DNA from: a virus
Taxonomy: Duplodnaviria > Caudoviricetes
Length of the DNA: 64,000 nucleotides
Virus record (IMG/VR): IMGVR_UViG_3300033120_000804
Coordinates: 1-64,000 of that record
Reading direction: 5' to 3' (one strand)
Position 1 is the stretch's first letter; the number at the start of each line of letters is the position of its first letter. Of this stretch, positions 35,718 to 60,441 are shown piece by piece. Position numbers and translations under genes: made by a program. A model generated the notes under the pieces. It had not been told where the DNA came from. It saw only the letters and a program-made list of their open reading frames with translations, and did not search any database.

Positions 35718-38700
35718 TTAAGCACCACACATCTCACAATCATCCGGATTATCTAAACTACAACTTATTTGTTCTTGTATTTCTTCTTTCTCAGCAGTAA
35801 ATTTAATAGCATCAGCAGCAGCTTTTGTTCTTAAATAATACATACCTGTTTTTAAACCTAATTTCCAACCATAAAAATGCATGGAAGTAAGTTTACCAAA
35901 ATTAGCATTCTCCATAAATACATTCATAGATTGAGATTGACAAATAAATTTACCTCTATCTGCTGCCATCTCTAATATTTTCTTTTGAGAGATTTCCCAA
36001 ACAGTTTTAAATACTTCTTTTACTTCTGTTGGAATCTCTGGAATATTTTGTACAGAGCCATTTTCATTTTTAAGCTTATTAATAATAGTATCATTCCATA
36101 AATCTAAACTTATTAATTTATCTACTAAATGTTTGTTAACCATTATAAATTCACCTGATAAAACTCTTCTAGTATATAAATTAGAAGTATATGGCTCAAA
36201 ACATTCATTATTACCTAAAATAGAAGCTGTTGATGCAGTTGGCATTGGAGCTAATAATAATGAATTTCTAATTCCATATTTAACAATCTGAACTTTTAAT
36301 TTTTTCCAATTCCAATTGCTAGATTTCTCTACTTCTTCTGTTTTATTCCACATATCATACTGTAAAATACCTTTAGAAGCAGGAGATCCTTCAAATGAAT
36401 CATAAGGCCCCTTTTCAATTGCAAGATCCTTAGAAGCTGTTAAACTAGCAAAATAAATAGTTTCAAATATTTTATCATTTAGTTCTTTAGCTTCCTCTGA
36501 ATCAAAAGCAATATTCATCATTGCAAATGTATCTGCTAATCCCTGAATCCCAATACCAATTGGTCTATGCTTAAGATTGCTTAATTTAGTTTCAGGAGTA
36601 GGGTAATGATTACTATCAATAACTCTATTTAAGTTAATAGTTAATTCATAAGATAAGTCATATAATAAATCATGATCAAAGAAATAACCTAAAAATTCTG
36701 ATTTACTATTTGCTGCTAATTTGCCTCCATATCCTTTTACTAGACATTTATTAACTGCAATAGAAGCTAGATTACAAACTGCTTGTTCTGTTGGAGAAGT
36801 ATATTCTAAAATCTCAGTACAATTTCCGGTTAAAATGCCATTAAAAACAGCTTTGTGTTTTAAAGGTTCATTTACACAATAGGTGTCAGAAATAATAGTA
36901 TTTCTTTCTATATCTATAACTTTTATATAATTTTCAGATTGTCTATTGCTAGATAAAGTTCTTGATAAATTAAGCCTTTTACAATCTAAACCTAAATCAA
37001 GTAATTTTGAAGTTTCAATTCCTCCTAAATATAATCTATATGCAGATTTACACCATCTTTCACAAGATTCTCCATTTCTATTTTTAAAAGTTCTAAATGT
37101 CTCATCAGATTTAAGAGTTAATTTGCAATTAACCCCCATAGTATCTAACATTTTTTTAACATTTTCTAGAAATTCTTTATTAACAGCAGTTATTTCTATA
37201 TCTTTACCATTAGAATGACCATCTCCGTCACAATAACCAGCAAACCAGTCAAGTTTAACATTTAATGAATAATCAAGAGGTACTTTATATTTATTTTCCA
37301 TTTCTGGGTATAAAGTAAGATTTAAAGACCCTTCTGTTGTTAATTTTCCAGAAGTAGTTTTAAGGTTAATATACCCCTTTTTATACAAGTCAATTTTTGA
37401 TCCATATAGAGTTATTCTCTTATGTTTTCCAAAATCATGGCCATCTGCACAATATAAACCATGTGTATAAGGATATAAAAAATCATTATTAGAATTATCA
37501 ATAGCTGGCATTGAAAATCTACTAATTCTATCTCCTACTATTAAATCTTCAGCATTAACAATTTCTTCATATAATTTTCCTTTGTTATTTTTACCTGGAC
37601 GTTTAACATAAAACTTATGATAAGGAGTACAATCTAAAATGCTACCATTTGAAAAACTAAAAGTATGTAAATTTACATTTTCCCCTGTTTTTCTTACAAT
37701 AGTATCTGAAAATTGGGTACCATTCCATACTTTAACATTTTGATTTTCTAAAGATGAAATAATTTTATAACCTTCATCTGTTAATATTTCAGTATGAGCA
37801 GCCACACATAAATTTGAAGATTTTATTGTCCCTAGATTTTTCTGATTAGATTTTTTATTCGCTGCGTCCTTGTAGACAACAAACGGCGTACCTGTTTCAA
37901 TTTGGGAATCTAAAATCTTAGTCCAAAGTTCTTGAGCTTTAATAGTCTTCCTACCTTTGTTCTCAGCTTCATATCTCTCATATAAGAGCTTAAATTCATC
38001 TCCATATACATCAGATAGTCCTGGACATTCATTAGGACACATAAGAGTCCAGTTTTCATCAGCTTCTACCCTCTGCATAAATAAATCTGGTATCCATAAT
38101 GCTGGAAATAATTCTCTAGCTCTTAATTCCTCCTTGCCAGTATTCTTTCTGATATCTAAAAAATCAAATACATCAGCGTGCCAAGGTTCTAAATACATTG
38201 CAAAAGAACCCTTGCGCTTATTTCCTCCTTGGTCCCACCATCTAGCTAGTTCATTGTATGTTTTTAATAAAGGAATTAGTCCTTTAGAAGTACCACCAGA
38301 ACCTTTAATGTATGATCCAGTAGCTCTAATGTTATGAATAGCTAAACCAATGCCACCTGAGGCAGCTGAGATAGTAGCTACATCTTTTGCAGTATCCATA
38401 ATACCTTCTAAACTATCTTCTTTATTTGTCAATAAGAAACAAGAAGACATTTGAGGTTTCGGTGTACCTGAATTAAACAAAGTAGGAGTTGCATGTGTGT
38501 AATAACCATTAGCTAAACTAAGATAAGTTTTTTCTATATTAACTATATCTAACCCATGAATGCCAATAGCAACTCTCATATACATATATTGAGGAGTCTC
38601 TACAATATTTCCATTAGATCTAATTAAATAAGACTTATATAATGTTTTTAAACCAAAATAGTTTCTTTCATAATCTAATTGAGGAGTTATAAGTCTCTCA

Positions 38701-39095
38701 ATAAAATCTTTATTTATATTAAAATCAGCAATTAATTTATCAGAAACTAATGGAGCATCTTCCCCTGTTTTAGCATCTTTATTATTATAAAGAATATCAA
38801 CACATTCTCCAAAAGTTTTAGGAGTATTTTTATGAAGATTAGCAACAAGTATTCTAGAAGCTAAATATGAGTATTCATAATGCTTAGTAGATAGCATTGC
38901 AGCATTCTCTGCTAATAATTCATTAATTTGTACAGTAGTTACTCCATCATATAACCCAGAGATAGTTTTCTGGGTTACAATACTAGGATCTACAAAAGTT
39001 AATTTAGGTTCTAAATTAGCTAAATGTTTTACATGTTCAGTTAACTTATGCCAATTAGCATCAACTAAATGTCCACTTCTTTTTTTAATTTTCAT
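35718..39095 (-). CDS. nrdA: ribonucleotide reductase class Ia large subunit, intein-containing
   Basis: ATP cone, ATPTLFNSGT, SSCFL, SSNL|C..|CTEI, APMPTAST, KTGMYYLR and C-terminal CEMC. Confidence 0.95.
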   Translation of the reverse strand: MKIKKRSGHLVDANWHKLTEHVKHLANLEPKLTFVDPSIVTQKTISGLYDGVTTVQINELLAENAAMLSTKHYEYSYLASRILVANLHKNTPKTFGECVDILYNNKDAKTGEDAPLVSDKLIADFNINKDFIERLITPQLDYERNYFGLKTLYKSYLIRSNGNIVETPQYMYMRVAIGIHGLDIVNIEKTYLSLANGYYTHATPTLFNSGTPKPQMSSCFLLTNKEDSLEGIMDTAKDVATISAASGGIGLAIHNIRATGSYIKGSGGTSKGLIPLLKTYNELARWWDQGGNKRKGSFAMYLEPWHADVFDFLDIRKNTGKEELRARELFPALWIPDLFMQRVEADENWTLMCPNECPGLSDVYGDEFKLLYERYEAENKGRKTIKAQELWTKILDSQIETGTPFVVYKDAANKKSNQKNLGTIKSSNLCVAAHTEILTDEGYKIISSLENQNVKVWNGTQFSDTIVRKTGENVNLHTFSFSNGSILDCTPYHKFYVKRPGKNNKGKLYEEIVNAEDLIVGDRISRFSMPAIDNSNNDFLYPYTHGLYCADGHDFGKHKRITLYGSKIDLYKKGYINLKTTSGKLTTEGSLNLTLYPEMENKYKVPLDYSLNVKLDWFAGYCDGDGHSNGKDIEITAVNKEFLENVKKMLDTMGVNCKLTLKSDETFRTFKNRNGESCERWCKSAYRLYLGGIETSKLLDLGLDCKRLNLSRTLSSNRQSENYIKVIDIERNTIISDTYCVNEPLKHKAVFNGILTGNCTEILEYTSPTEQAVCNLASIAVNKCLVKGYGGKLAANSKSEFLGYFFDHDLLYDLSYELTINLNRVIDSNHYPTPETKLSNLKHRPIGIGIQGLADTFAMMNIAFDSEEAKELNDKIFETIYFASLTASKDLAIEKGPYDSFEGSPASKGILQYDMWNKTEEVEKSSNWNWKKLKVQIVKYGIRNSLLLAPMPTASTASILGNNECFEPYTSNLYTRRVLSGEFIMVNKHLVDKLISLDLWNDTIINKLKNENGSVQNIPEIPTEVKEVFKTVWEISQKKILEMAADRGKFICQSQSMNVFMENANFGKLTSMHFYGWKLGLKTGMYYLRTKAAADAIKFTAEKEEIQEQISCSLDNPDDCEMCGA
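36822..37808 (-). mobile_element. intein (329 aa) with LAGLIDADG endonuclease in NrdA
   Basis: Starts CVAAHTEILT; block B TPYHKF; HGLYCADG and FAGYCDGDG motifs; ends AVFNGILTGN before the catalytic Cys. Removal restores SSNLCTEI. Confidence 0.92.
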
Positions 39096-45061: not shown

Positions 45062-46060
45062 TCAGACTATATCATCACTAGAATAGCCAAAATACTCTTT
45101 TTTTAAAATAATATTAAAAGTAGTATTTTCTATTCCAGGCAGGGCGCTCGTGTCAGCATTACTATCCTCAGCATTATCTGTTTGGATTTGGCTGTTAGTC
45201 GTTGAACCTTCTAAAGTATTACTACTTAAGCTTGGCTGCTGATTATCCTCACCGACTGTGATAGGACTTCCCAGCAATTCACCCTGTTTTTTAAGGTCTT
45301 CTATTAAATATCTATTTTTATATAAATTACGTTTATTTTTCATAGCTCTTGAAATTGTTTGAAATGTTTTATTAAAAAAAGTACCACAACTTTTATAAGA
45401 ATCAAATTCATAATAGATACCTGTGTAAGTATCTAAAACTAATAAAGCTTTCTGCCTCTTTAAAGAAACCTCTGTGTAATCTCTTCCTAAATATTCTTCT
45501 ATAATTTTACTATCATTTGAATATTTCCATTGAAATCCCCCAGCAGTTCTATGTTTTCCTTTTAGAACCCTTGTTATTTGACATGTTGAGATATTACATT
45601 GATCAGATGCTTTAGTAACAGAATTATATTCAATAATAAAATTACCCTTTAAATCATATTTCTTTATTTTCTTTTCACTATAACTTTTTATTTTTCCAGA
45701 CTTAATTCTAATTAGTCTAGTCTCAGACATCTTTTTTCTTGATTCATCTGTTACAGTTAAACGTATAACATCTTTCTTTAAATTATAATCTCCAAAAAGA
45801 TTAATCCATTTTTGTTCTACAATAGCTAAATTTTCAATACTACTCAATTCTAACAAAAAACAGATGAAATTTTCTTCAAAATATTTATTCCAAGCGGATT
45901 GAAGATATGAATTTTCATGCTTATTGTTACGTAATAAAGACCTATGTTTTAATAAACGATTTTTTATATTTTTTGAACTTCCTATATAACATTTATTATT
46001 AAATGTATTTTTAATGCAGTAAATCCCAATTGATTTCTCCCACTTATTGTCAATTTTCAT
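45062..46060 (-). CDS. GIY-YIG homing endonuclease with NUMOD-type DNA-binding domains
   Basis: GIYCIKN...CYIGSS, R...H...L, YDLKGNFI.EY.S and TAGGFQWKY. Confidence 0.9.
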   Translation of the reverse strand: MKIDNKWEKSIGIYCIKNTFNNKCYIGSSKNIKNRLLKHRSLLRNNKHENSYLQSAWNKYFEENFICFLLELSSIENLAIVEQKWINLFGDYNLKKDVIRLTVTDESRKKMSETRLIRIKSGKIKSYSEKKIKKYDLKGNFIIEYNSVTKASDQCNISTCQITRVLKGKHRTAGGFQWKYSNDSKIIEEYLGRDYTEVSLKRQKALLVLDTYTGIYYEFDSYKSCGTFFNKTFQTISRAMKNKRNLYKNRYLIEDLKKQGELLGSPITVGEDNQQPSLSSNTLEGSTTNSQIQTDNAEDSNADTSALPGIENTTFNIILKKEYFGYSSDDIV

Positions 46061-50461: not shown

Positions 50462-51490
50462 TTATTTATTTAAATATTTCACCCAATCTTTAATATGTTC
50501 CGTTGTACTGGGTGTAAACCAACGAGCATAACCTGCTAAAGTATCATTTTTACGAGTATGGAAAGAAATTACTTTTTTAATTTCCCACTTGTTTAATTTT
50601 TGACCATCTACATCAGCAATTTTTTTTGTACCTGAATTATAAGTATTTCCCCAATCATGACCTGGATTATCTTCATCCCCAAATACAATAGCTGTTTCAT
50701 ATTTCCTAACTTCTGAACTTAATAATGCTTTAAAGTAAATTTGATCATTATCCATTTCATTTTCTTCATAGATTGTATCTACATTTAATGTATGGATATT
50801 TTCATAAGTATATAATGTAGATTTAGAACCAGTGATCATTATATCTGCATAAAAAGATTCACCTAAATGTTTAGCTAACATTAAACAGGTAGAAGATACT
50901 CCTCTAGGAATACTTCCTGAAATATCAATAATAATTAAATTTCTACTTGGAGAATTCATTTCTACTCCTCCATACATACCTCCTAATTTCTTATTGTACA
51001 TTAAAGGATTATGTGTTGCAAAATTATGGATATTAGTACTAATAGCTTCTTCAATACTATTTAGCCATACAGGGAATACATTTAATTGTTTTAGTTTATC
51101 TACATCAACAATAGCAGCATTATCCTTTAAAAAGGATTTAATTGAGCCTTTTCCTTCAAAATTTGATTTTACTTCTTTAGGTTCATCAGTTAACCAATAT
51201 TCTTCATCTGATTCTTTATAACTAAAACATTCTAGTCCTCCAAAGCCATATGATTCCATATCAAGAAATCCTGCATCCTTTAAAATTTGTTTAAAATTAA
51301 AAGGATAACCAGTTGCTACTGCTTTTTGATATAGAACCTCATATTCTAATATCCTTAAATAGTCATCATACTTAGATTCCTCACCATAAAAAAAAGGAAC
51401 ACCTATTGGTAATTCCTCTAATTCTTCTCTATTTGTAATAAAGAAGATTTTTGGTAATGGAATCTTTTTTTTACTTTCAAATAATCTCAT
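50462..51490 (-). CDS. VWA (MIDAS) domain protein
   Basis: IIIDISGSI (DxSxS) and IVFGD; adjacent to an AAA+ ATPase. Confidence 0.75.
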   Translation of the reverse strand: MRLFESKKKIPLPKIFFITNREELEELPIGVPFFYGEESKYDDYLRILEYEVLYQKAVATGYPFNFKQILKDAGFLDMESYGFGGLECFSYKESDEEYWLTDEPKEVKSNFEGKGSIKSFLKDNAAIVDVDKLKQLNVFPVWLNSIEEAISTNIHNFATHNPLMYNKKLGGMYGGVEMNSPSRNLIIIDISGSIPRGVSSTCLMLAKHLGESFYADIMITGSKSTLYTYENIHTLNVDTIYEENEMDNDQIYFKALLSSEVRKYETAIVFGDEDNPGHDWGNTYNSGTKKIADVDGQKLNKWEIKKVISFHTRKNDTLAGYARWFTPSTTEHIKDWVKYLNK

Positions 51491-52062
51491 TCTTCATGTG
51501 TTTTACTAAATCTAACCAAGGCATCATTTCATTTGGAGCAAATGATTCACCATTAGGCAGTTTTATGTTTTTCTTTGTTGTGTTTTTAATAGGAAGATTT
51601 AAAATAGGCATTAGTTTCTCTTCATATGGTGTTGGGCACTCTGCTATAATCATTGAAATAGCTTTGTCTAAACTTCTTGGTGTGTCGAAATTTCTACCTG
51701 CAAAATCTTCTTCTTTAATAAGCTTTACTAAGCTTGTTACTTGTTTGGCTGTAAGCATATATTTTTCCATGATGTAGTTTTTAAACATATCAGGGTCAAA
51801 TATAATAGGATACCAAACAAACCTTTCTTTAATTTGAGGAGTTAAAGGGCTCATTCCTTGTTCATTAGCAGCAGCTACAATCATAATATTAGGCAAAGAT
51901 TTACCTGAAATCATTCTTCTGTTTTCCAATACAGTTAAACAAGCTGCTAATACAGTAGGATTACCATTTAATAATTCATCAAAAAACAAAATATCTCCGT
52001 CTACTAAACTATCTAATTTATCAAAATTATAATAAATCATTTGTTTAAGATCTTTATCTGGC
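51477..52062 (-). CDS. MoxR-like AAA+ ATPase, exon 2
   Basis: PDKD.., Walker B ILFFDE, VAAAN, ERF and TPRS. Confidence 0.82.
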
Positions 52063-53224
52063 CATTATGTTCACTTAGAGACGTTAATTCTAAGCAGTTA
52101 ATTTAATAACATCTGTATCTTTCAATACAGTTCAGACTATATCTTGATCTCATAGAGATCTGTGTATTTCCATTCACTTGAATGTACTCCTTGCTAAAGG
52201 ATAGTCGTTGAACGTTTCCCATTTTAAAGGGACTCCGCTGCTGATTGCCCATTCGACATCTTAATAATTTTCAAACATTCACGCTTACTCTTTGGAGTTA
52301 CGTTGTAGTTTATTAAGCTTTAGGGGTTTCCAGCAATTAACACAATATCAAATATACATCACTGTATATTAGGACGCTATAAGTGTTTTGCTTGCATAAA
52401 ATTGCAAATATTTTTGATATTTTCGGTTAAGATATATATTTGAATCTTTGTAAATCCAATTTAGAAATAAACAAATATCATATCTTGAGAAACAAAGTTC
52501 TGCTACTTTATTTTTATATCTAATTCTTGTTTTTATATTAAATTTTTCTAACAAGAAATCGGATAATTTTTCACAAAATAATGTACTAGAAGTAATTGAA
52601 ATATCTTTTTCACCTAACCAACCATCGCCATCAAAAAAACCTCTTAAATAGTCTTTAAATAGTTCTTCTGGTACTTGTTCAGTTGTTGGTAAATCCAAAT
52701 TAAATGTTTTTCTAGGAATACATCCTAATTCATTTAACCTATCAGATATTCTTTTATTTGAAATTTGCAAACCATATTGATCTGTTCCAGATGTCTTTCT
52801 GCAAAAAGTTAAAGGTTTATCTGGTTGAAGTAAATTATTTAATTTTACTAAAACTTCTTTATCAGATTCTTTTAAAAACATACTAACTTTAGTGTTATTC
52901 ATGTGATTACAACCATCTGCACAAAGAAATCCAAGAAAATAAGCTTTTTCTTCACAATCAATTTTATCAAAGTAGTATTGATTTATATCATACTTTCTAA
53001 AATGATTTTCTTTTCTTTTACCTTTTAATCCCTCTCTATTCAAAAGACATGCTATTGAGCTTATGGACTTACCAAACTTATCTGCAAGTTCTTTGTAAGT
53101 ATACTGATAAGTATTATACATTTCAAATAATTCTTCTTTTTCTTCTTTTGTTAACCTATTTTGTTTCATGTTGTAAATATACAACAAAAACCTATTAATA
53201 TCAAATTAAAACCTTATTTATTTC
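52063..53224 (-). mobile_element. group I intron in the MoxR-like ATPase gene
   Basis: P AATTGCTGGAAA, Q AATCAGCAG, R GTTCAACGACTA and S AAGATATAGTC elements; the AT|G junction gives SGIAMPDKD. Confidence 0.9.
52369..53169 (-). CDS. double-motif LAGLIDADG homing endonuclease
   Basis: YFLGFLCADG and YLRGFFDGDG motifs plus an N-terminal HTH; likely start is the ATG at 53169, after a TATATTTA box. Confidence 0.9.
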   Translation of the reverse strand: MKQNRLTKEEKEELFEMYNTYQYTYKELADKFGKSISSIACLLNREGLKGKRKENHFRKYDINQYYFDKIDCEEKAYFLGFLCADGCNHMNNTKVSMFLKESDKEVLVKLNNLLQPDKPLTFCRKTSGTDQYGLQISNKRISDRLNELGCIPRKTFNLDLPTTEQVPEELFKDYLRGFFDGDGWLGEKDISITSSTLFCEKLSDFLLEKFNIKTRIRYKNKVAELCFSRYDICLFLNWIYKDSNIYLNRKYQKYLQFYASKTLIAS

Positions 53225-53421
53225 ATCGCGATACCACTAATTTCAAAAGGAGACATTTGTGAAGTAATAAACTCAACTAACTTCACACCTTTTTCTTTTG
53301 CAAATTGCTCTATCAATTTAGTTTTTCCTAATCCAGGATTCCCAATAAATAATGGAACAATTGTTTTTCTTAATTCTTCATTTTCATATACTCTTTGAAG
53401 TACGCTTGTTATATTCTTCAT
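53225..53421 (-). CDS. MoxR-like AAA+ ATPase, exon 1
   Basis: Walker A GNPGLGKT and SQMSPFEISG. Confidence 0.82.
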
Positions 53422-54337: not shown

Positions 54338-54612
54338 TTGTCTAGTTTTATTTTAAAGTCAGGTATTTTTATTCTTTCTTTGTTTAACTTTTGAACATTG
54401 TATAAATACTCAGTAATACAATATTTACCAAAAGTTATATAATTAATGAATTTATGATACCATTTATTGTTCTTTACAATAGGTCCATCTGTAACTATTA
54501 AATCAAAGCTATCATTTGATTGTAATAAATCACTTTCAGTAAATACACCTTTATTTAAAGTTATTTTAAAACAACTTTCAGCTAATCCAAATAGTTTTTC
54601 TTTATTTTCCAC
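54334..54612 (-). CDS. hypothetical protein
   Basis: 92-aa ORF. Confidence 0.5.
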   Translation of the reverse strand: MENKEKLFGLAESCFKITLNKGVFTESDLLQSNDSFDLIVTDGPIVKNNKWYHKFINYITFGKYCITEYLYNVQKLNKERIKIPDFKIKLDK

Positions 54613-55738
54613 TTTCTATTAAATAACGATATTGGATAAAACCTTTGAAATTATTACACCAAGCTGCATAAGGATAATAAGTTTCACTTACATTTTCTAA
54701 TTCTGTAAAATAATCATTTCCTTCTTTTGAAATATTTCTTTCTCCCTTAAAAAATCTTCCATATTCTTCATCACTCATAGCTTTAGCGCAATGTTCAAAT
54801 GGTGAATAGTGTCCGTCTTTCAATAGTATATCATGCAGTTTAATATCAGCTTCATAGTCAATTTTAGGATTGTCACCTAAAGTTTGATAGGATAATCTAG
54901 CACACCTGGCAGTAGAAATTTTTAATTTTTGTAAATTCTGCAATTCTTTAACTTGTTCTTTTCCATCTAAAAGTTCATTTGGAACATACATAAACGTCTG
55001 TCCATCTTCTTTAACTTTATGAAAAATTACAGAAGGATCAATGTTATCTCCATAAGGAATATGCCACTCTCCAGGTTGTAATTCTTTTGGTGTACTTTCA
55101 TTATAAGCATCCCACATAGCTTCAGCCAAAGCCATCATATGAATTTCTGATTGACCTTCATTCATTAATAGCCATTTTACAGTACTCCAATCTTCAACGT
55201 TCATATTTTCAGAAACATGAGTACTAGTAAAAGTAGGATTCCAAAATTTATTTACAAAGTCTTTTTTACTTTTATAGTATTTATTTTCTGGTTCAGCATA
55301 GTAAAGAGGGCATCTAATATTAAAGAAATTTTCAAATTCAGTAGAAGTGATTAAAACTTTATGCCACATAAATGGTTCAAGTAACCGATTACAAAGCTGT
55401 TTAGTTACTCTACTATTTAAAAATTTAGCTTGTTTAATAGCTTGAATACCTGCTTCTTTCCAATTATAAATAGCATAATCTATGTCACTTTGGTTAGTTA
55501 AATATTCAGTGCCTTGCATACCTTTATGGTCTTTTTGCCAAGCAATTGGAATAAAAGGATTTTCTTCTACTGATTTTAGCATTTTTTCAAATGGAATAGC
55601 TCTACTTGATGCTGAATTTCTACTAAATAATCTATGTGTATTTAATTCTGCTAAAATAAATCTAGGAAATACAACTTCCATTGTAGTAATTCTATTTCCG
55701 TTACAAATTGAATCAGCTACTATTTTTGCACTAATCAT
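54602..55738 (-). CDS. thyX: flavin-dependent thymidylate synthase
   Basis: AELNTHRLFSRNSASSR, KQ..NRLLEPF, ARCARLSY and H.SPFEH. Confidence 0.9.
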   Translation of the reverse strand: MISAKIVADSICNGNRITTMEVVFPRFILAELNTHRLFSRNSASSRAIPFEKMLKSVEENPFIPIAWQKDHKGMQGTEYLTNQSDIDYAIYNWKEAGIQAIKQAKFLNSRVTKQLCNRLLEPFMWHKVLITSTEFENFFNIRCPLYYAEPENKYYKSKKDFVNKFWNPTFTSTHVSENMNVEDWSTVKWLLMNEGQSEIHMMALAEAMWDAYNESTPKELQPGEWHIPYGDNIDPSVIFHKVKEDGQTFMYVPNELLDGKEQVKELQNLQKLKISTARCARLSYQTLGDNPKIDYEADIKLHDILLKDGHYSPFEHCAKAMSDEEYGRFFKGERNISKEGNDYFTELENVSETYYPYAAWCNNFKGFIQYRYLIESGK

Positions 55739-56673: not shown

Positions 56674-57135
56674 CTATTTAATATTATAAAAATCTTTATA
56701 AATATCTAAAAAAGTATCTCCTACAAAAACAGTATGTTCTGTACAACTAAAATAAACACAATGTCCATATAAATTTACAGTATCAGTTATGTATGAGTTA
56801 TACTTAAATTTATCTTCTACTATTTGAAAAGAAGGATAGTATTTTAATATTCGCTTATCTAAAAAATCTAATTCCAAATCTTTATTAAAAAAACTTTCAA
56901 TTTGATTTAACCTTTCTTGTGCACATAATTTTTTAGGATTAATAAAATCTATAAACTCTGACTCATGCCAATATCTTAAACCAGTAACCTTACAAAACTC
57001 TTTGTAATTTTTTACATTCTCCATTACATATTCTATAGTAACATCTTTAAAACCAATTGTTTCTTTTGGAATATCTTCTATTTTTTCATCTTTTTGAGCA
57101 GATTTTAATAATTTAAATATTTCTTTATTTTTCAT
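56674..57135 (-). CDS. paralogue of the DGR target protein (diverged VR)
   Basis: ENVKNYKEFCKVTGL, AQE.L.QIE and KYYP.F shared with 57326..57787. Confidence 0.75.
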   Translation of the reverse strand: MKNKEIFKLLKSAQKDEKIEDIPKETIGFKDVTIEYVMENVKNYKEFCKVTGLRYWHESEFIDFINPKKLCAQERLNQIESFFNKDLELDFLDKRILKYYPSFQIVEDKFKYNSYITDTVNLYGHCVYFSCTEHTVFVGDTFLDIYKDFYNIK

Positions 57136-57242
57136 TAATTTACTTTTTATAAATCTTCTTCAATATTTTAATATTTACCAAAGCTTTTTAGTATCTTGAT
57201 TTTTTGCCAAGAGGCAGGGTTTTCACTTAATTTGTAAGTAAA

Positions 57243-57304
57243 AGGTGACTACGTCATTAGTATAATCATGATTATCATTGTAATCATTGAAGACTAACTC
57301 ACTA
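57243..57304 (-). repeat. DGR template repeat (TR)
   Basis: 62-nt non-coding repeat that differs from the VR only at adenines; followed by CCCTGCCTCTTGGCAAAAAA. Confidence 0.92.
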
Positions 57305-57325
57305 AAAAGTCTAAATGAAAACCTG

Positions 57326-57787
57326 TTAAAGAATATCTTTGTATAAATCTATATATGTTTTTCCTACATAAGTAGCAATCTCTTTAGTCTCAAAGCAGGC
57401 GACCACGCCAAAAGTACAAACAAGAGCAACATAGCAAACATGGAAGACCAACCCACCACTCTTATTTATATTAAAATAAGGATAATATTTATATTGAGAA
57501 TGATTACTCCAATCTTTTTTCCAGTTTTGACCAAAATAATGCTCAATTTGAGCTAACTTCTCTTGTGCAAGTGCTTTAGTTGGATTAGTTTTAGTTAAAA
57601 ATTCTACTGCTAACCATTCTTTTAATCCCGTAACTTTACAGAATGCTTTATAGTCTTTTACATTTTCAATAATATAATTGAAATCAACTTTCTTAATTTC
57701 AGTTTCTTTTTTAATTTCTATTTTCTCATCTTCTTCATCTTCCTGTAGTGATCTAAGTAATTTTTGTATATTATATTTTTCTTTCAT
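57326..57787 (-). CDS. DGR target protein
   Basis: DWS...Q.KYYPYF-[VR]-F...E.A.YVGK.Y.DLY; contains the VR. Confidence 0.85.
   Translation of the reverse strand: MKEKYNIQKLLRSLQEDEEDEKIEIKKETEIKKVDFNYIIENVKDYKAFCKVTGLKEWLAVEFLTKTNPTKALAQEKLAQIEHYFGQNWKKDWSNHSQYKYYPYFNINKSGGLVFHVCYVALVCTFGVVACFETKEIATYVGKTYIDLYKDIL
57397..57458 (-). repeat. DGR variable repeat (VR)
   Basis: Encodes GGLVFHVCYVALVCTFGVVA; 18 mismatches to the TR, all opposite TR adenines. Confidence 0.92.
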
Positions 57788-57920
57788 AATTATTATATTT
57801 ATTTTCTAGGTTCCTAAAATTTGCATGTGAAGTCCATCCATTATAAGAAGCTCTTGATTTTTTATTATTATATTTTTTAATCATTTTAATATAATTTTTC
57901 TTAATTCTTTTTCTTATATT
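57771..57920 (-). pseudogene. DGR reverse transcriptase, C-terminal remnant
   Basis: NIRKRIKKNYIKMIKKYNNKKSRASYNGWTSHANFRNL resembles the SY.GW..H thumb motif. Confidence 0.75.
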
Positions 57921-57922
57921 TG
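57915..57922 (+). promoter_or_regulatory. TAnnTTTG promoter box
   Basis: TATATTTG 4 nt before the ATG at 57927. Confidence 0.55.
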
Positions 57923-57926
57923 TAAT

Positions 57927-58292
57927 ATGGCAAAATATACAGAATATAATTTAAAATACAGAGAAAAAGGCTTAAAGAACGATCCTTTTAGATTTCTATA
58001 TTATAATACAAAAGGTAGTTCTAAAAGACACAATAGAGAATTTAAAATTTCTAAAGATTTTTTGTTAGAACTATATGCAAAACAAAAAGGTAAATGTTAC
58101 TACACAAATAGAATTTTAAAAACTGAATTTGGTTTACAAGATTCTTTTTCTGTGGATAGAAAAGATCCTTCTATAGGATATTTACCAGAGAATACCGTAT
58201 TATGTTGCTGGCAAGTAAATAGAATGAAAAGTAATGCTACTATTGAAGAATTAATTCAATTTGCAAAAGATATATTATTAACCTTAAAATAG
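57927..58292 (+). CDS. free-standing His-Me finger (HNH-like) endonuclease
   Basis: Q.GKCYYT, SVDRKDPSIGY...N.VLCC..VN.MK; the only credible + strand gene in the - strand block. Confidence 0.8.
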   Translation: MAKYTEYNLKYREKGLKNDPFRFLYYNTKGSSKRHNREFKISKDFLLELYAKQKGKCYYTNRILKTEFGLQDSFSVDRKDPSIGYLPENTVLCCWQVNRMKSNATIEELIQFAKDILLTLK

Positions 58293-58401
58293 CTGACTAT
58301 TAATGTGCTCTCAATAGGTTATTCACTTATAGAAATATTCCCTAACACCTCTTCTAATCCAGTAAAGATAGGCTATTAATACTCATTCTTCAAATTCACC
58401 T

Positions 58402-58473
58402 TTAAGAATTATCAGCTAAAATTAAATTATCTAAATCATATATTTGGCGGTATAAATTTCCTATTCTTTTCAA
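58402..58473 (-). pseudogene. DGR reverse transcriptase, N-terminal remnant
   Basis: TTG start, (M)KRIGNLYRQIYDLDNLILADNS*, a typical DGR RT N-terminus with a premature stop. Confidence 0.75.
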
Positions 58474-58482
58474 TTATATATT

Positions 58483-60441
58483 TTAATGTTCCCATAAATC
58501 AGAAACTATTGCATCAGCTTTTAATATCACTCTTTTGCACCAAAAACTACCTGCTAATTCCATTAGTTCTTGTAATTTATTTTTAGCTACTTCAGATAAC
58601 ATTTCATCAGATTCTAATACAATTTCATCATGAACAAGCAAAATAATTTTAATTTGATTAAACAAATAATTTTCTTGTAACCATTCATGAATTAATATTA
58701 TTGCAAGTTTGGTTATAGACCCAGCTGTTCCCTGAATTACATAATTCTGAGCCGCCCTACCCATAGTACCTTCTAGCTTATTAGCTGTCTTATAGTCATT
58801 ATGTAATTTAGCTTCTTGTAGTTTATTATAGTCTTTAAAATAAAATTTTCTTCTAGTGATTTCATCAATAAGTATATAACCTTGTTTAAGACTTTTATCT
58901 CTCTCTTTTGAAAAGAAATCTTTTAGACCAGGAAAAGCTTCAAAATAAGCATTATATACTTCATCTCCTTCTTCTACTGATATGCCTAGATTAGCTGCTA
59001 TAGTATATCCATTGCCTCCATAATCAATTGCAAATCCACTAGCTTTTACTTTTTGACGCAAATCCTTTCTTTTAGATTTAACATCTTTTAACTCTATATC
59101 AGCTAACTCTTTTTTATAGACTAATTTAGCAGTATAAGAATGAATATCTCCTAGATTTTTATCATAAAAAATAAGTAAATCTTTATCTAATGATTTATTT
59201 ACTAGAATGATTTTTTCTTGTCCCGTGTAGTCAGCATTAATTAATTTTTTACCTGGCAATGCATCAAAAGCATATCTAAACTCATGTTTACTCGGAATAT
59301 TTTGGAGGTTGGGTCCACTAGAACTTATACGCCCTGTATTCAGAATTTGCCTGTAATTAGAATGTAATCTATTAGTAATTGGATTTAAATACTTAAAAAA
59401 CTTAATACCAAAAGTAGTTATAGTTTGTTCAAATTCTTTAAACTTAATATATAAAGTTACAAATTCTTTCTTTTTAGAGTCTAATAAAGGGTCTAGAAGC
59501 AATATCCTAACCTCTTTGGCTTCTACTGTATAACTAAGCTTTTTAGTAGTCTTAGAAACAGCCTTAGGGCATATATCAAGATATTTAAAAAATTCTATTA
59601 CTTGTTTAGATGAAGTCCATTGAATATTACATTTTAAATCATCACTAAATAAATCTAATTGAGGATTTATAAATTTTGAATCTCTGTAATTTTCTATAAT
59701 ATAATCGTCTAATTCTTTTTTTAATTTTTGGAATTCAATTAGATTGTTATCATAAGTTTTTATCCATTTATCTTTATTTAAATGAACCCCTGTATATTCA
59801 ATTTCAGCTAATGCAGGTAGAAATCTCATTTCTAATCTGACTACTGGCTCTAAATCTTGTATTTTTAGTTTTTCTAATTGAAAATTCCTAATTAGTAATG
59901 GATGTAAAATATCTTCTGCACCATATTCTATTTGTCTTTGAGTGTAAGGTTTAGACTGTATATTCAAGAATTCTAATCTTGTACTCTTATCTACAGTTTT
60001 ACCTAAATATCTTTTATTTAAAGCTTCTAAACTGTTCTCTAAATCATACCCACAATTTAGTATTTGCTCTACAATCATAGTATCATATAAGTTATTTATA
60101 CGTATTCCATAATTATGTAACAAATGTTTGTATTCAAATTTTAAATTTTGTCCAACTTTAATTTTATTTGGATCTGTAAGTAATGGATACAATAAACTTA
60201 TATCTATATTTCTTACATCAATAATATATTGATTAATCTCGTCTCCTATTTGTAACATAACAATCTTAGAAGTATAAGGATCTAATCCTTCTATATCTAG
60301 ATATTTATTATATTTCCTAGTAGTTTCAATATCAATACTAATTACTTCTTTATATTTTAGATAATCAAAACACTCTTCAATAGAACAATGTTTTACTACA
60401 TCTTGTAATAAAGAAGTTTGGTTTGTAATTAAATAAATCAT
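58483..60441 (-). CDS. polA: family A DNA polymerase with 3'-5' exonuclease
   Basis: DIETT, TGRISS..PNLQNIP, ADYTGQE, RQKVKASGFAIDYG, IQGTA and VHDEI. Confidence 0.95.
   Translation of the reverse strand: MIYLITNQTSLLQDVVKHCSIEECFDYLKYKEVISIDIETTRKYNKYLDIEGLDPYTSKIVMLQIGDEINQYIIDVRNIDISLLYPLLTDPNKIKVGQNLKFEYKHLLHNYGIRINNLYDTMIVEQILNCGYDLENSLEALNKRYLGKTVDKSTRLEFLNIQSKPYTQRQIEYGAEDILHPLLIRNFQLEKLKIQDLEPVVRLEMRFLPALAEIEYTGVHLNKDKWIKTYDNNLIEFQKLKKELDDYIIENYRDSKFINPQLDLFSDDLKCNIQWTSSKQVIEFFKYLDICPKAVSKTTKKLSYTVEAKEVRILLLDPLLDSKKKEFVTLYIKFKEFEQTITTFGIKFFKYLNPITNRLHSNYRQILNTGRISSSGPNLQNIPSKHEFRYAFDALPGKKLINADYTGQEKIILVNKSLDKDLLIFYDKNLGDIHSYTAKLVYKKELADIELKDVKSKRKDLRQKVKASGFAIDYGGNGYTIAANLGISVEEGDEVYNAYFEAFPGLKDFFSKERDKSLKQGYILIDEITRRKFYFKDYNKLQEAKLHNDYKTANKLEGTMGRAAQNYVIQGTAGSITKLAIILIHEWLQENYLFNQIKIILLVHDEIVLESDEMLSEVAKNKLQELMELAGSFWCKRVILKADAIVSDLWEH

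Follow-up and report, generated by a model that had tools for sequence, protein, structure and literature searches.

The locus analyzed here raises the question whether a DGR (diversity-generating retroelement) diversifies a small protein encoded outside the structural genes of a phage, or whether it did so in the past and has come to a halt. The window, i.e. the whole stretch of 64,000 nucleotides analyzed (positions 1 to 64,000 of the IMG/VR virus record IMGVR_UViG_3300033120_000804; Caudoviricetes), is part of a genome of 91,650 bp with a GC content of 27.5%. On the - strand, the cassette reads in the order polA, reverse transcriptase (RT) stub, ORF A with the variable repeat (VR), template repeat (TR), spacer hairpin, and ORF B.

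Template and variable repeats

The target gene ORF A (57326-57787, - strand) encodes a protein of 153 amino acids and carries the VR (57397-57458, - strand; 62 nt) at codons 110-131, near its 3′ end, as expected of a DGR target. The TR (57243-57304, - strand; 62 nt) is non-coding and begins 21 nt past the stop codon of ORF A. Direct comparison of both repeats reproduced the counts of the original prediction, namely 18 mismatches in 62 nt, all located at TR adenines (18 of 21); these substitutions comprised nine A>G, seven A>T, and two A>C changes from TR to VR. All other TR positions (41 out of 41) were identical in the VR, and the similarity ended sharply at both sides of the repeat. When each TR adenine was replaced by N and the resulting pattern was searched in the entire 91,650-bp genome, two sites only were retrieved, the TR and the VR, with zero mismatches each, so that the search for further VRs that had been proposed yielded a single VR. 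Similarly, a genome-wide scan for repeats with differences restricted to a single base returned the TR/VR pair as the sole pair, with neither C- nor G-restricted repeats being found in the same scan. As a control, 10 shuffled genomes were searched, in which the maximum number of non-adenine matches was 14-17, compared with the 41 observed. In the reading frame of the VR, the TR consists mainly of the codons AAT, GAT, TAC, CAT, and TAT, and inspection of the codons confirmed that no adenine change can create a stop codon. In addition, the hypervariable patch of the protein family alignment coincided exactly with the VR, both flanks being conserved. The assignment as a DGR-type pair is thus supported by its uniqueness in the genome, by its distance from the shuffled controls, and by the intact cassettes of relatives described below, and the adenine-only TR/VR pair is a genuine DGR product.

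A separate observation concerns the 5′ ends of the repeats, where the first 11-33 nt, holding the conserved Gly-Gly-Leu/Trp codons in most pairs, contain adenines in the TR (AGT GAG TTA in the window). Among the 5′ ends examined (57295-57304 in the window, and the related loci L003-L006, L009, L010, L012, L014, L018, L020, and L044), the VR showed a G opposite these TR adenines at 62 of the 84 positions, versus 213 of 643 elsewhere in the repeats. The 5′ end of the L004 TR contains an in-frame TAG. This G bias reflects either a strong selection that filters each retrohoming event or a rare transfer of these positions.

Reverse transcriptase remnants and an inserted endonuclease gene

No cognate RT of the DGR clade (RVT_1 with the motif GxxxSQ) was present beside the TR. 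Its place is taken by two remnants, retrieved by both tblastn and HMM searches, of which the N-terminal one (58396-58473, - strand) comprises 26 codons followed by stops, and the C-terminal one (57771-57935, - strand) comprises approximately 50 codons with the natural stop and overlaps with the start of ORF A. Indeed, tblastn with the RT of the related locus L004 aligned residues 1-25 at 58473-58399 (68% identity; E 1.7e-4) and residues 271-314 at 57929-57795 (53% identity; E 1e-6), and an HMM built from 11 RTs of the family (320 positions), run on the six reading frames, matched with positions 1-26 (iE 1e-3) and 268-317 (iE 1.2e-10) only. At the site of the RT core, an HNH/endonuclease VII-like homing endonuclease gene is found in inverted orientation (57927-58292, + strand; phrog_3322 endonuclease, E 2.7e-24; phrog_1035 endonuclease VII, E 1.7e-18). 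These alignments show that RT codons ~27-267, all catalytic motifs included, were replaced by the HNH gene, so that the cassette has no functional RT. The original prediction, from which this loss was absent, is hence borne out as to the TR/VR pair, which is real, and probably not as to present hypervariability, the RT being nonfunctional.

Elsewhere in the 91,650-bp genome, no RT was found by Pfam RVT_1, tblastn, or the family HMM; neither was there an RT-like ORF bearing YxDD, nor a match with Avd (PF05635) at E<=0.1. The genome record is linear and has an estimated completeness of 96%, so that an RT in the missing end is possible. A search of the literature retrieved no paper on a homing endonuclease replacing the RT of a DGR.

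Cassettes in related loci

Neither a scan of viral contigs with ORF A as single protein nor a tblastn search with ORF A against GenBank phages gave a match, and relatives were obtained solely via the family alignment, through which 50 loci (numbered with the prefix L) were fetched. The lineage has a common layout of one to three tandem small targets, a TR of 57-84 nt located approximately 20 nt past the last stop codon, a spacer of ~100-117 nt in most loci, and an RT of ~320 amino acids. The order target(s), TR, gap of ~100-117 nt, and full-length RT occurs in L005, L006, L012, L014, L018, L022, L026, L040, and L044; in L048, the target(s) and TR are followed by a gap of 228 nt and an RT truncated by the contig end. 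A second layout, RT, target, TR, is found in L004 and L020. More precisely, L004 has the order target, RT (RVT_1, E 9e-20), target, TR, one TR matching two VRs. The motif GNYLSQ was found in the RT translations of both L004 and L026, the latter also containing YADD. The RT is always within ~0.5 kb of the TR in intact relatives, and most relatives have no ORF, and so no Avd gene, between target and TR. That the family is genuinely targeted by DGRs is evident from these intact cassettes.

Other loci are incomplete. In L003, a LAGLIDADG gene (Pfam E 2e-12) precedes a C-terminal RT stub; stubs are all that is seen of the RT in L009/L011 and L010; L027 contains a truncated RT, L016 contains a decayed TR with six non-adenine mismatches, and many loci lack any TR. 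RT loss thus recurs among the relatives. Perfect TR/VR pairs were also found in the RT-less loci L003, L009/L011, and L010, by a scan that detects perfect pairs only.

Several loci showed further peculiarities. In L009, the ORF that immediately precedes the RT stub and target (L009:3337-3648) matches with the Acb2/Tad1 hairpin domain (Pfam E 5.6e-8), and this anti-CBASS/anti-Thoeris sponge domain is the lone hint of an anti-defence neighborhood. Two different TRs (694-760 and 2273-2338) occur in L020, where the elements are arranged as target, TR, RT, target, TR; past the latter TR, a GC-rich terminator-like hairpin takes the place of the conserved spacer hairpin. In gut members, the last target is separated from the TR by an extra ORF of 110 amino acids (L026:4207-4539; no Pfam match), which could encode an accessory protein in place of Avd.

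Spacer hairpin and other cis elements

A structured spacer follows the TR, as is the case in DGRs. The spacer hairpin (57200-57216, - strand), 27 nt past the TR in the 3′ direction, consists of a stem TGCC, a loop TCTT, and a stem GGCA, followed by an A-run. A 4-bp hairpin with an A-run 3′ of the TR was found in all 16 aligned loci, with compensatory changes in three of the four base pairs. The spacer also contains a TTGGTA box (57177-57182, - strand), whose T, G, T, and A do not vary among the 16 aligned loci. Both the hairpin and the TTGGTA box are intact in the window. The interval originally assigned to the TR/VR pair, which started at 57200, does include both repeats, and it takes in this conserved hairpin 3′ of the TR as well. 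By analogy with other DGRs, the hairpin may play a role in priming. A GC-rich inverted repeat 3′ of the VR (IMH/hairpin) was not found, the region containing an AT palindrome only (57345-57360).

The target protein and its family

ORF A belongs to a large uncharacterized phage protein family (phrog_11581, E 1.4e-10; function unknown). A profile search with the ORF A family retrieved 1,996 clusters at 50% identity (E<=1e-3), whose members are mostly 130-190 amino acids long, some being tandem fusions; the closest homologues (P0002-P0005) share 73-78% identity with ORF A. No Pfam family was found for ORF A, its paralogue ORF B, or 84 homologues. ORF B (56674-57135, - strand) also encodes 153 amino acids and shares 42% identity with ORF A (E 1e-31). 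It was considered as a further target of this TR but rejected, since at best 18 of the 41 non-adenine positions match and the S-G-G-L motif is absent.

The ORF A protein has no signal peptide. An AF2 model (pLDDT 87; pTM 0.76) predicts a helical part (residues 36-86) that is followed by a beta-hairpin (strands 100-107 and 113-121) and, past a loop, by a pair of C-terminal helices, with the VR corresponding to the second strand and the loop after it; an N-terminal helix (residues 3-16) was poorly modelled (pLDDT below 60). The C-type lectin-like fold of DGR variable proteins such as Mtd, TvpA, and TaqVP, which had been put forward for verification, was not detected. Foldseek of the model against the PDB gave no informative match (best E 0.86), the top Z in VIA-align (wide) was 4.3, lectins being absent from the matches listed, a profile search against PDB sequences returned nothing below E 0.2, and BFVD and the ESM Atlas yielded uncharacterized phage proteins only, several of these from crAss-like viruses. 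The motif G-G-x-F ... G-x-V bears a loose resemblance to lectin-type VRs, and these searches leave a C-type lectin fold possible. We infer that ORF A most likely encodes a soluble protein that binds a ligand and is made together with the early/replication genes.

Genomic context

The original prediction had located the small target beside polA in a replication block and had set it apart from tail fibres, and such a location was indeed found. The upstream neighbor encodes a family A DNA polymerase (polA; 58483-60441, - strand; Pfam DNA_pol_A, E 4e-57, with a 3′-5′ exonuclease domain). The - strand block at 35.7-64 kb contains the genes for ribonucleotide reductase (RNR), primase, ThyX, and PolA, and the + strand block at 1-35 kb contains giant ORFs; ORF A is situated within the - strand block of DNA metabolism, outside the structural block. 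The PolA of the window is approximately 30% identical to the PolA of crAss-like phages, and the source is probably a crAss-like, AT-rich phage of ~92 kb.

The genome is rich in mobile endonucleases, among which a GIY-YIG/NUMOD homing endonuclease at 45062-46060 (- strand). A MoxR-like AAA ATPase gene (51477-53421, - strand) is seemingly split into a Walker-A part (53218-53421) and a C-terminal part (51477-52040), between which a LAGLIDADG endonuclease ORF is located (52369-53187; Pfam E 1.2e-11); this split may represent an intron or a gene disruption. The large subunit of ribonucleotide reductase (35718-39095, - strand) displays family matches at residues 1-437 and 719-1123, and the ~280 unmatched residues between these are possibly an intein. 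Similarly, the ThyX-like thymidylate synthase of 378 amino acids (54602-55738, - strand) has its best Pfam stretch at 276-318 and its best phrog_85 stretch at 2-151, pointing to an insertion or to divergence in the middle part.

State of the cassette and alternative explanations

Taken together, it is quite probable that the locus is a dedicated DGR of a ~92-kb, probably crAss-like phage in an early phase of decay, whose RT was destroyed by the HNH gene and whose VR is now frozen. While the RT was still intact, a transcript of the TR and spacer would have been reverse-transcribed with random incorporation opposite adenines, a mechanism for which the adenine-only signature and the intact relatives argue, and the cDNA would have replaced the VR, so that codons 111-130 acquired their current sequence. 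As the sequence shows, RT codons ~27-267 were subsequently displaced by a free-standing homing endonuclease gene of the HNH type. Since no cognate RT is left in the genome, the VR would now be an ordinary frozen coding sequence, with the TR and hairpin still without drift. The target, which had been called hypervariable, is therefore probably not so at present, given that the RT core is replaced by the HNH gene and that the VR is identical in the contigs of two samples. Indeed, contigs from runs X1 (coverage 84x; presumably the source sample) and X2 (~3x; same study) were identical to the window over TR, VR, and HNH insert, a comparison at contig level, at which rare VR variants are invisible. 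One additional contig, with its loose end beside the VR at 57463, resembles a homologue from another organism and not a VR variant. The perfect match at the 41 non-adenine positions and the intact hairpin indicate either a very recent RT loss or a continued use of the cassette, the latter being less likely, and the window fits an early stage of decay upon RT loss.

Continued use would require that the TR-spacer RNA is employed in trans, either by an RT encoded in the ~4% of the genome that was not assembled, or by that of a co-infecting relative, or of a prophage, with the same spacer hairpin. The perfect non-adenine match, the intact hairpin and TTGGTA box, and the perfect TR/VR pairs in other loci that show just an RT stub would agree with this; also, the genome is linear and 96% complete, and the spacer hairpin occurs family-wide, so that a related RT could plausibly recognize it. 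We nevertheless regard such activity as unlikely, for no RT was found in 91.6 kb with any of the three search methods, all intact relatives have their RT within ~0.5 kb of the TR, and the VR was the same in the contigs from both samples. Moreover, bRT-Avd of BPP-1, the DGR RT that has been characterized, uses the TR-spacer RNA of its own system, and the apparent perfection of the pairs is partly due to detection bias, the pair of L016 being decayed. A broader version of this idea, namely that RT-less cassettes are kept instead of decaying and borrow an RT in trans from co-infecting relatives sharing the spacer hairpin, is rather improbable, and more so than activity in the window itself. If true, it would amount to DGR hitch-hiking, and homing endonucleases could remove an RT without ending diversification.

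Two other explanations can largely be set aside. The RT gene could still be alive if it were interrupted by an intron or intein-like element with the HNH gene and spliced back; the abundance of homing endonuclease genes and split genes in the genome would be in line with this, as would the collinearity of the N- and C-terminal RT pieces on the same strand. The distance from RT start (58473) to RT stop (57771) is, however, just 703 nt, of which the HNH ORF takes 366, HMM positions 27-267, and with them all catalytic motifs, are missing in every frame, and the RT pieces are in different reading frames. Because only ~76 recognizable RT codons lie between this start and stop, compared with 320 in relatives, splicing cannot restore the RT, and this reading, which we consider highly improbable, was rejected for lack of coding sequence. 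Least likely of all, with a negligible chance of being correct, the repeat would be a coincidental or recombinational duplicate unrelated to reverse transcription. In favor of this are the shortness of the repeat (62 nt), the AT-richness of the genome (27.5% GC), and the missing RT, but a duplicate of this kind does not account for 41/41 non-adenine matches against at most 17 in shuffled genomes, for mismatches confined to adenines and going to all three other bases, for the same layout beside intact RTs in more than 10 relatives, or for RT stubs at the expected place. The frozen cassette with a destroyed RT hence is the preferred explanation.

Comparison with known systems

Compared with the founding DGR, that of Bordetella phage BPP-1 (mtd, avd, TR, brt), the cassette shares a TR/VR pair with adenine-specific substitutions, a VR toward the 3′ end of its target, a TR rich in AAY-type codons that are immutable to stops, and a structured spacer after the TR. 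It differs from BPP-1 by the absence of avd, a much shorter TR, the lack of a detectable GC-rich IMH/hairpin past the VR, a target of 153 amino acids in the replication block instead of a tail-fibre tip, and an RT reduced to a stub (~320 amino acids in relatives).

A closer counterpart is the distal target of Quimbyvirus/Bacteroides phage LoVEphage (LoVEphage protein QVQ57199.1), which belongs to a homologous protein family (hhalign probability 98.3%; E 1.5e-14; 139 aligned columns). In both cases, the VR is located at an equivalent site near the C-terminus with adenine-only mismatches, and the gene is found outside the structural module, among genes for DNA metabolism or modification. The VR in the QVQ57199.1 gene measures 113 nt and differs at 19 positions, all TR adenines, from the TR located ~15 kb away next to the LoVEphage RT. 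In the gut member L026, target 2 matches with this hypothetical protein of LoVEphage, whose gene is located among methyltransferases and an RtcB ligase. The LoVEphage target, however, is remote from the TR and RT (~15 kb), and a tail-module target is served by the same TR, whereas the small proteins of the window and its relatives are the sole targets of a compact dedicated cassette. Furthermore, the LoVEphage protein has the longer VR (113 nt versus 62 nt) and an extra insert, and the RT is destroyed in the window. This distal, apparently non-structural second DGR target of Quimbyvirus was described before, with the speculation that it is involved in phage-host conflict (Benler et al. 2021, Microbiome 9:78, PMC8008677). 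The intracellular binder originally suggested for the window, which would act in host takeover or anti-defence, restates this speculation on the homologous target. C-type lectin domains have been reported in both Quimbyvirus targets, ORFs 47 and 80 (PMC8008677), whereas no lectin fold was detected for the ORF A model. Because the ORF A family is homologous to the LoVEphage/Quimbyvirus distal target, diversifying a small non-structural phage protein has a precedent.

DGR cassettes with a fragmented or deleted RT have been reported for epsilon crAss-like phages (Viruses 2024;16:513, PMC11054128). As in the window, whose phage is probably crAss-like too, target, VR, and TR persist in these remnants without an intact RT. 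In contrast, the target of the epsilon crAss-like remnants is a large C-type-lectin receptor-binding protein, and RT replacement by a homing endonuclease was not described (PMC11054128).

Significance

Systems of the kind found here, in which a DGR diversifies a small phage protein outside the structural module, are already known, and the member in the window has lost its RT. At the level of detail, three aspects are new, namely the compact, avd-less cassette lineage dedicated to the ORF A protein family, the conserved spacer hairpin of this lineage, and the recurrent removal of the RT, in the window by an HNH gene. The lineage, without avd and with very short TRs, would be missed in such genomes by standard DGR finders that center on the RT. 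The window provides a clean natural example of DGR death, in which a homing endonuclease gene stands in for precisely the catalytic core of the RT and TR, hairpin, and VR are pristine, and the same RT loss has occurred several times in relatives, once with a different endonuclease family. Finally, a large unnamed phage protein family (~2,000 clusters; without Pfam entry or detectable solved fold) is hereby tied to the one published non-structural phage DGR target.
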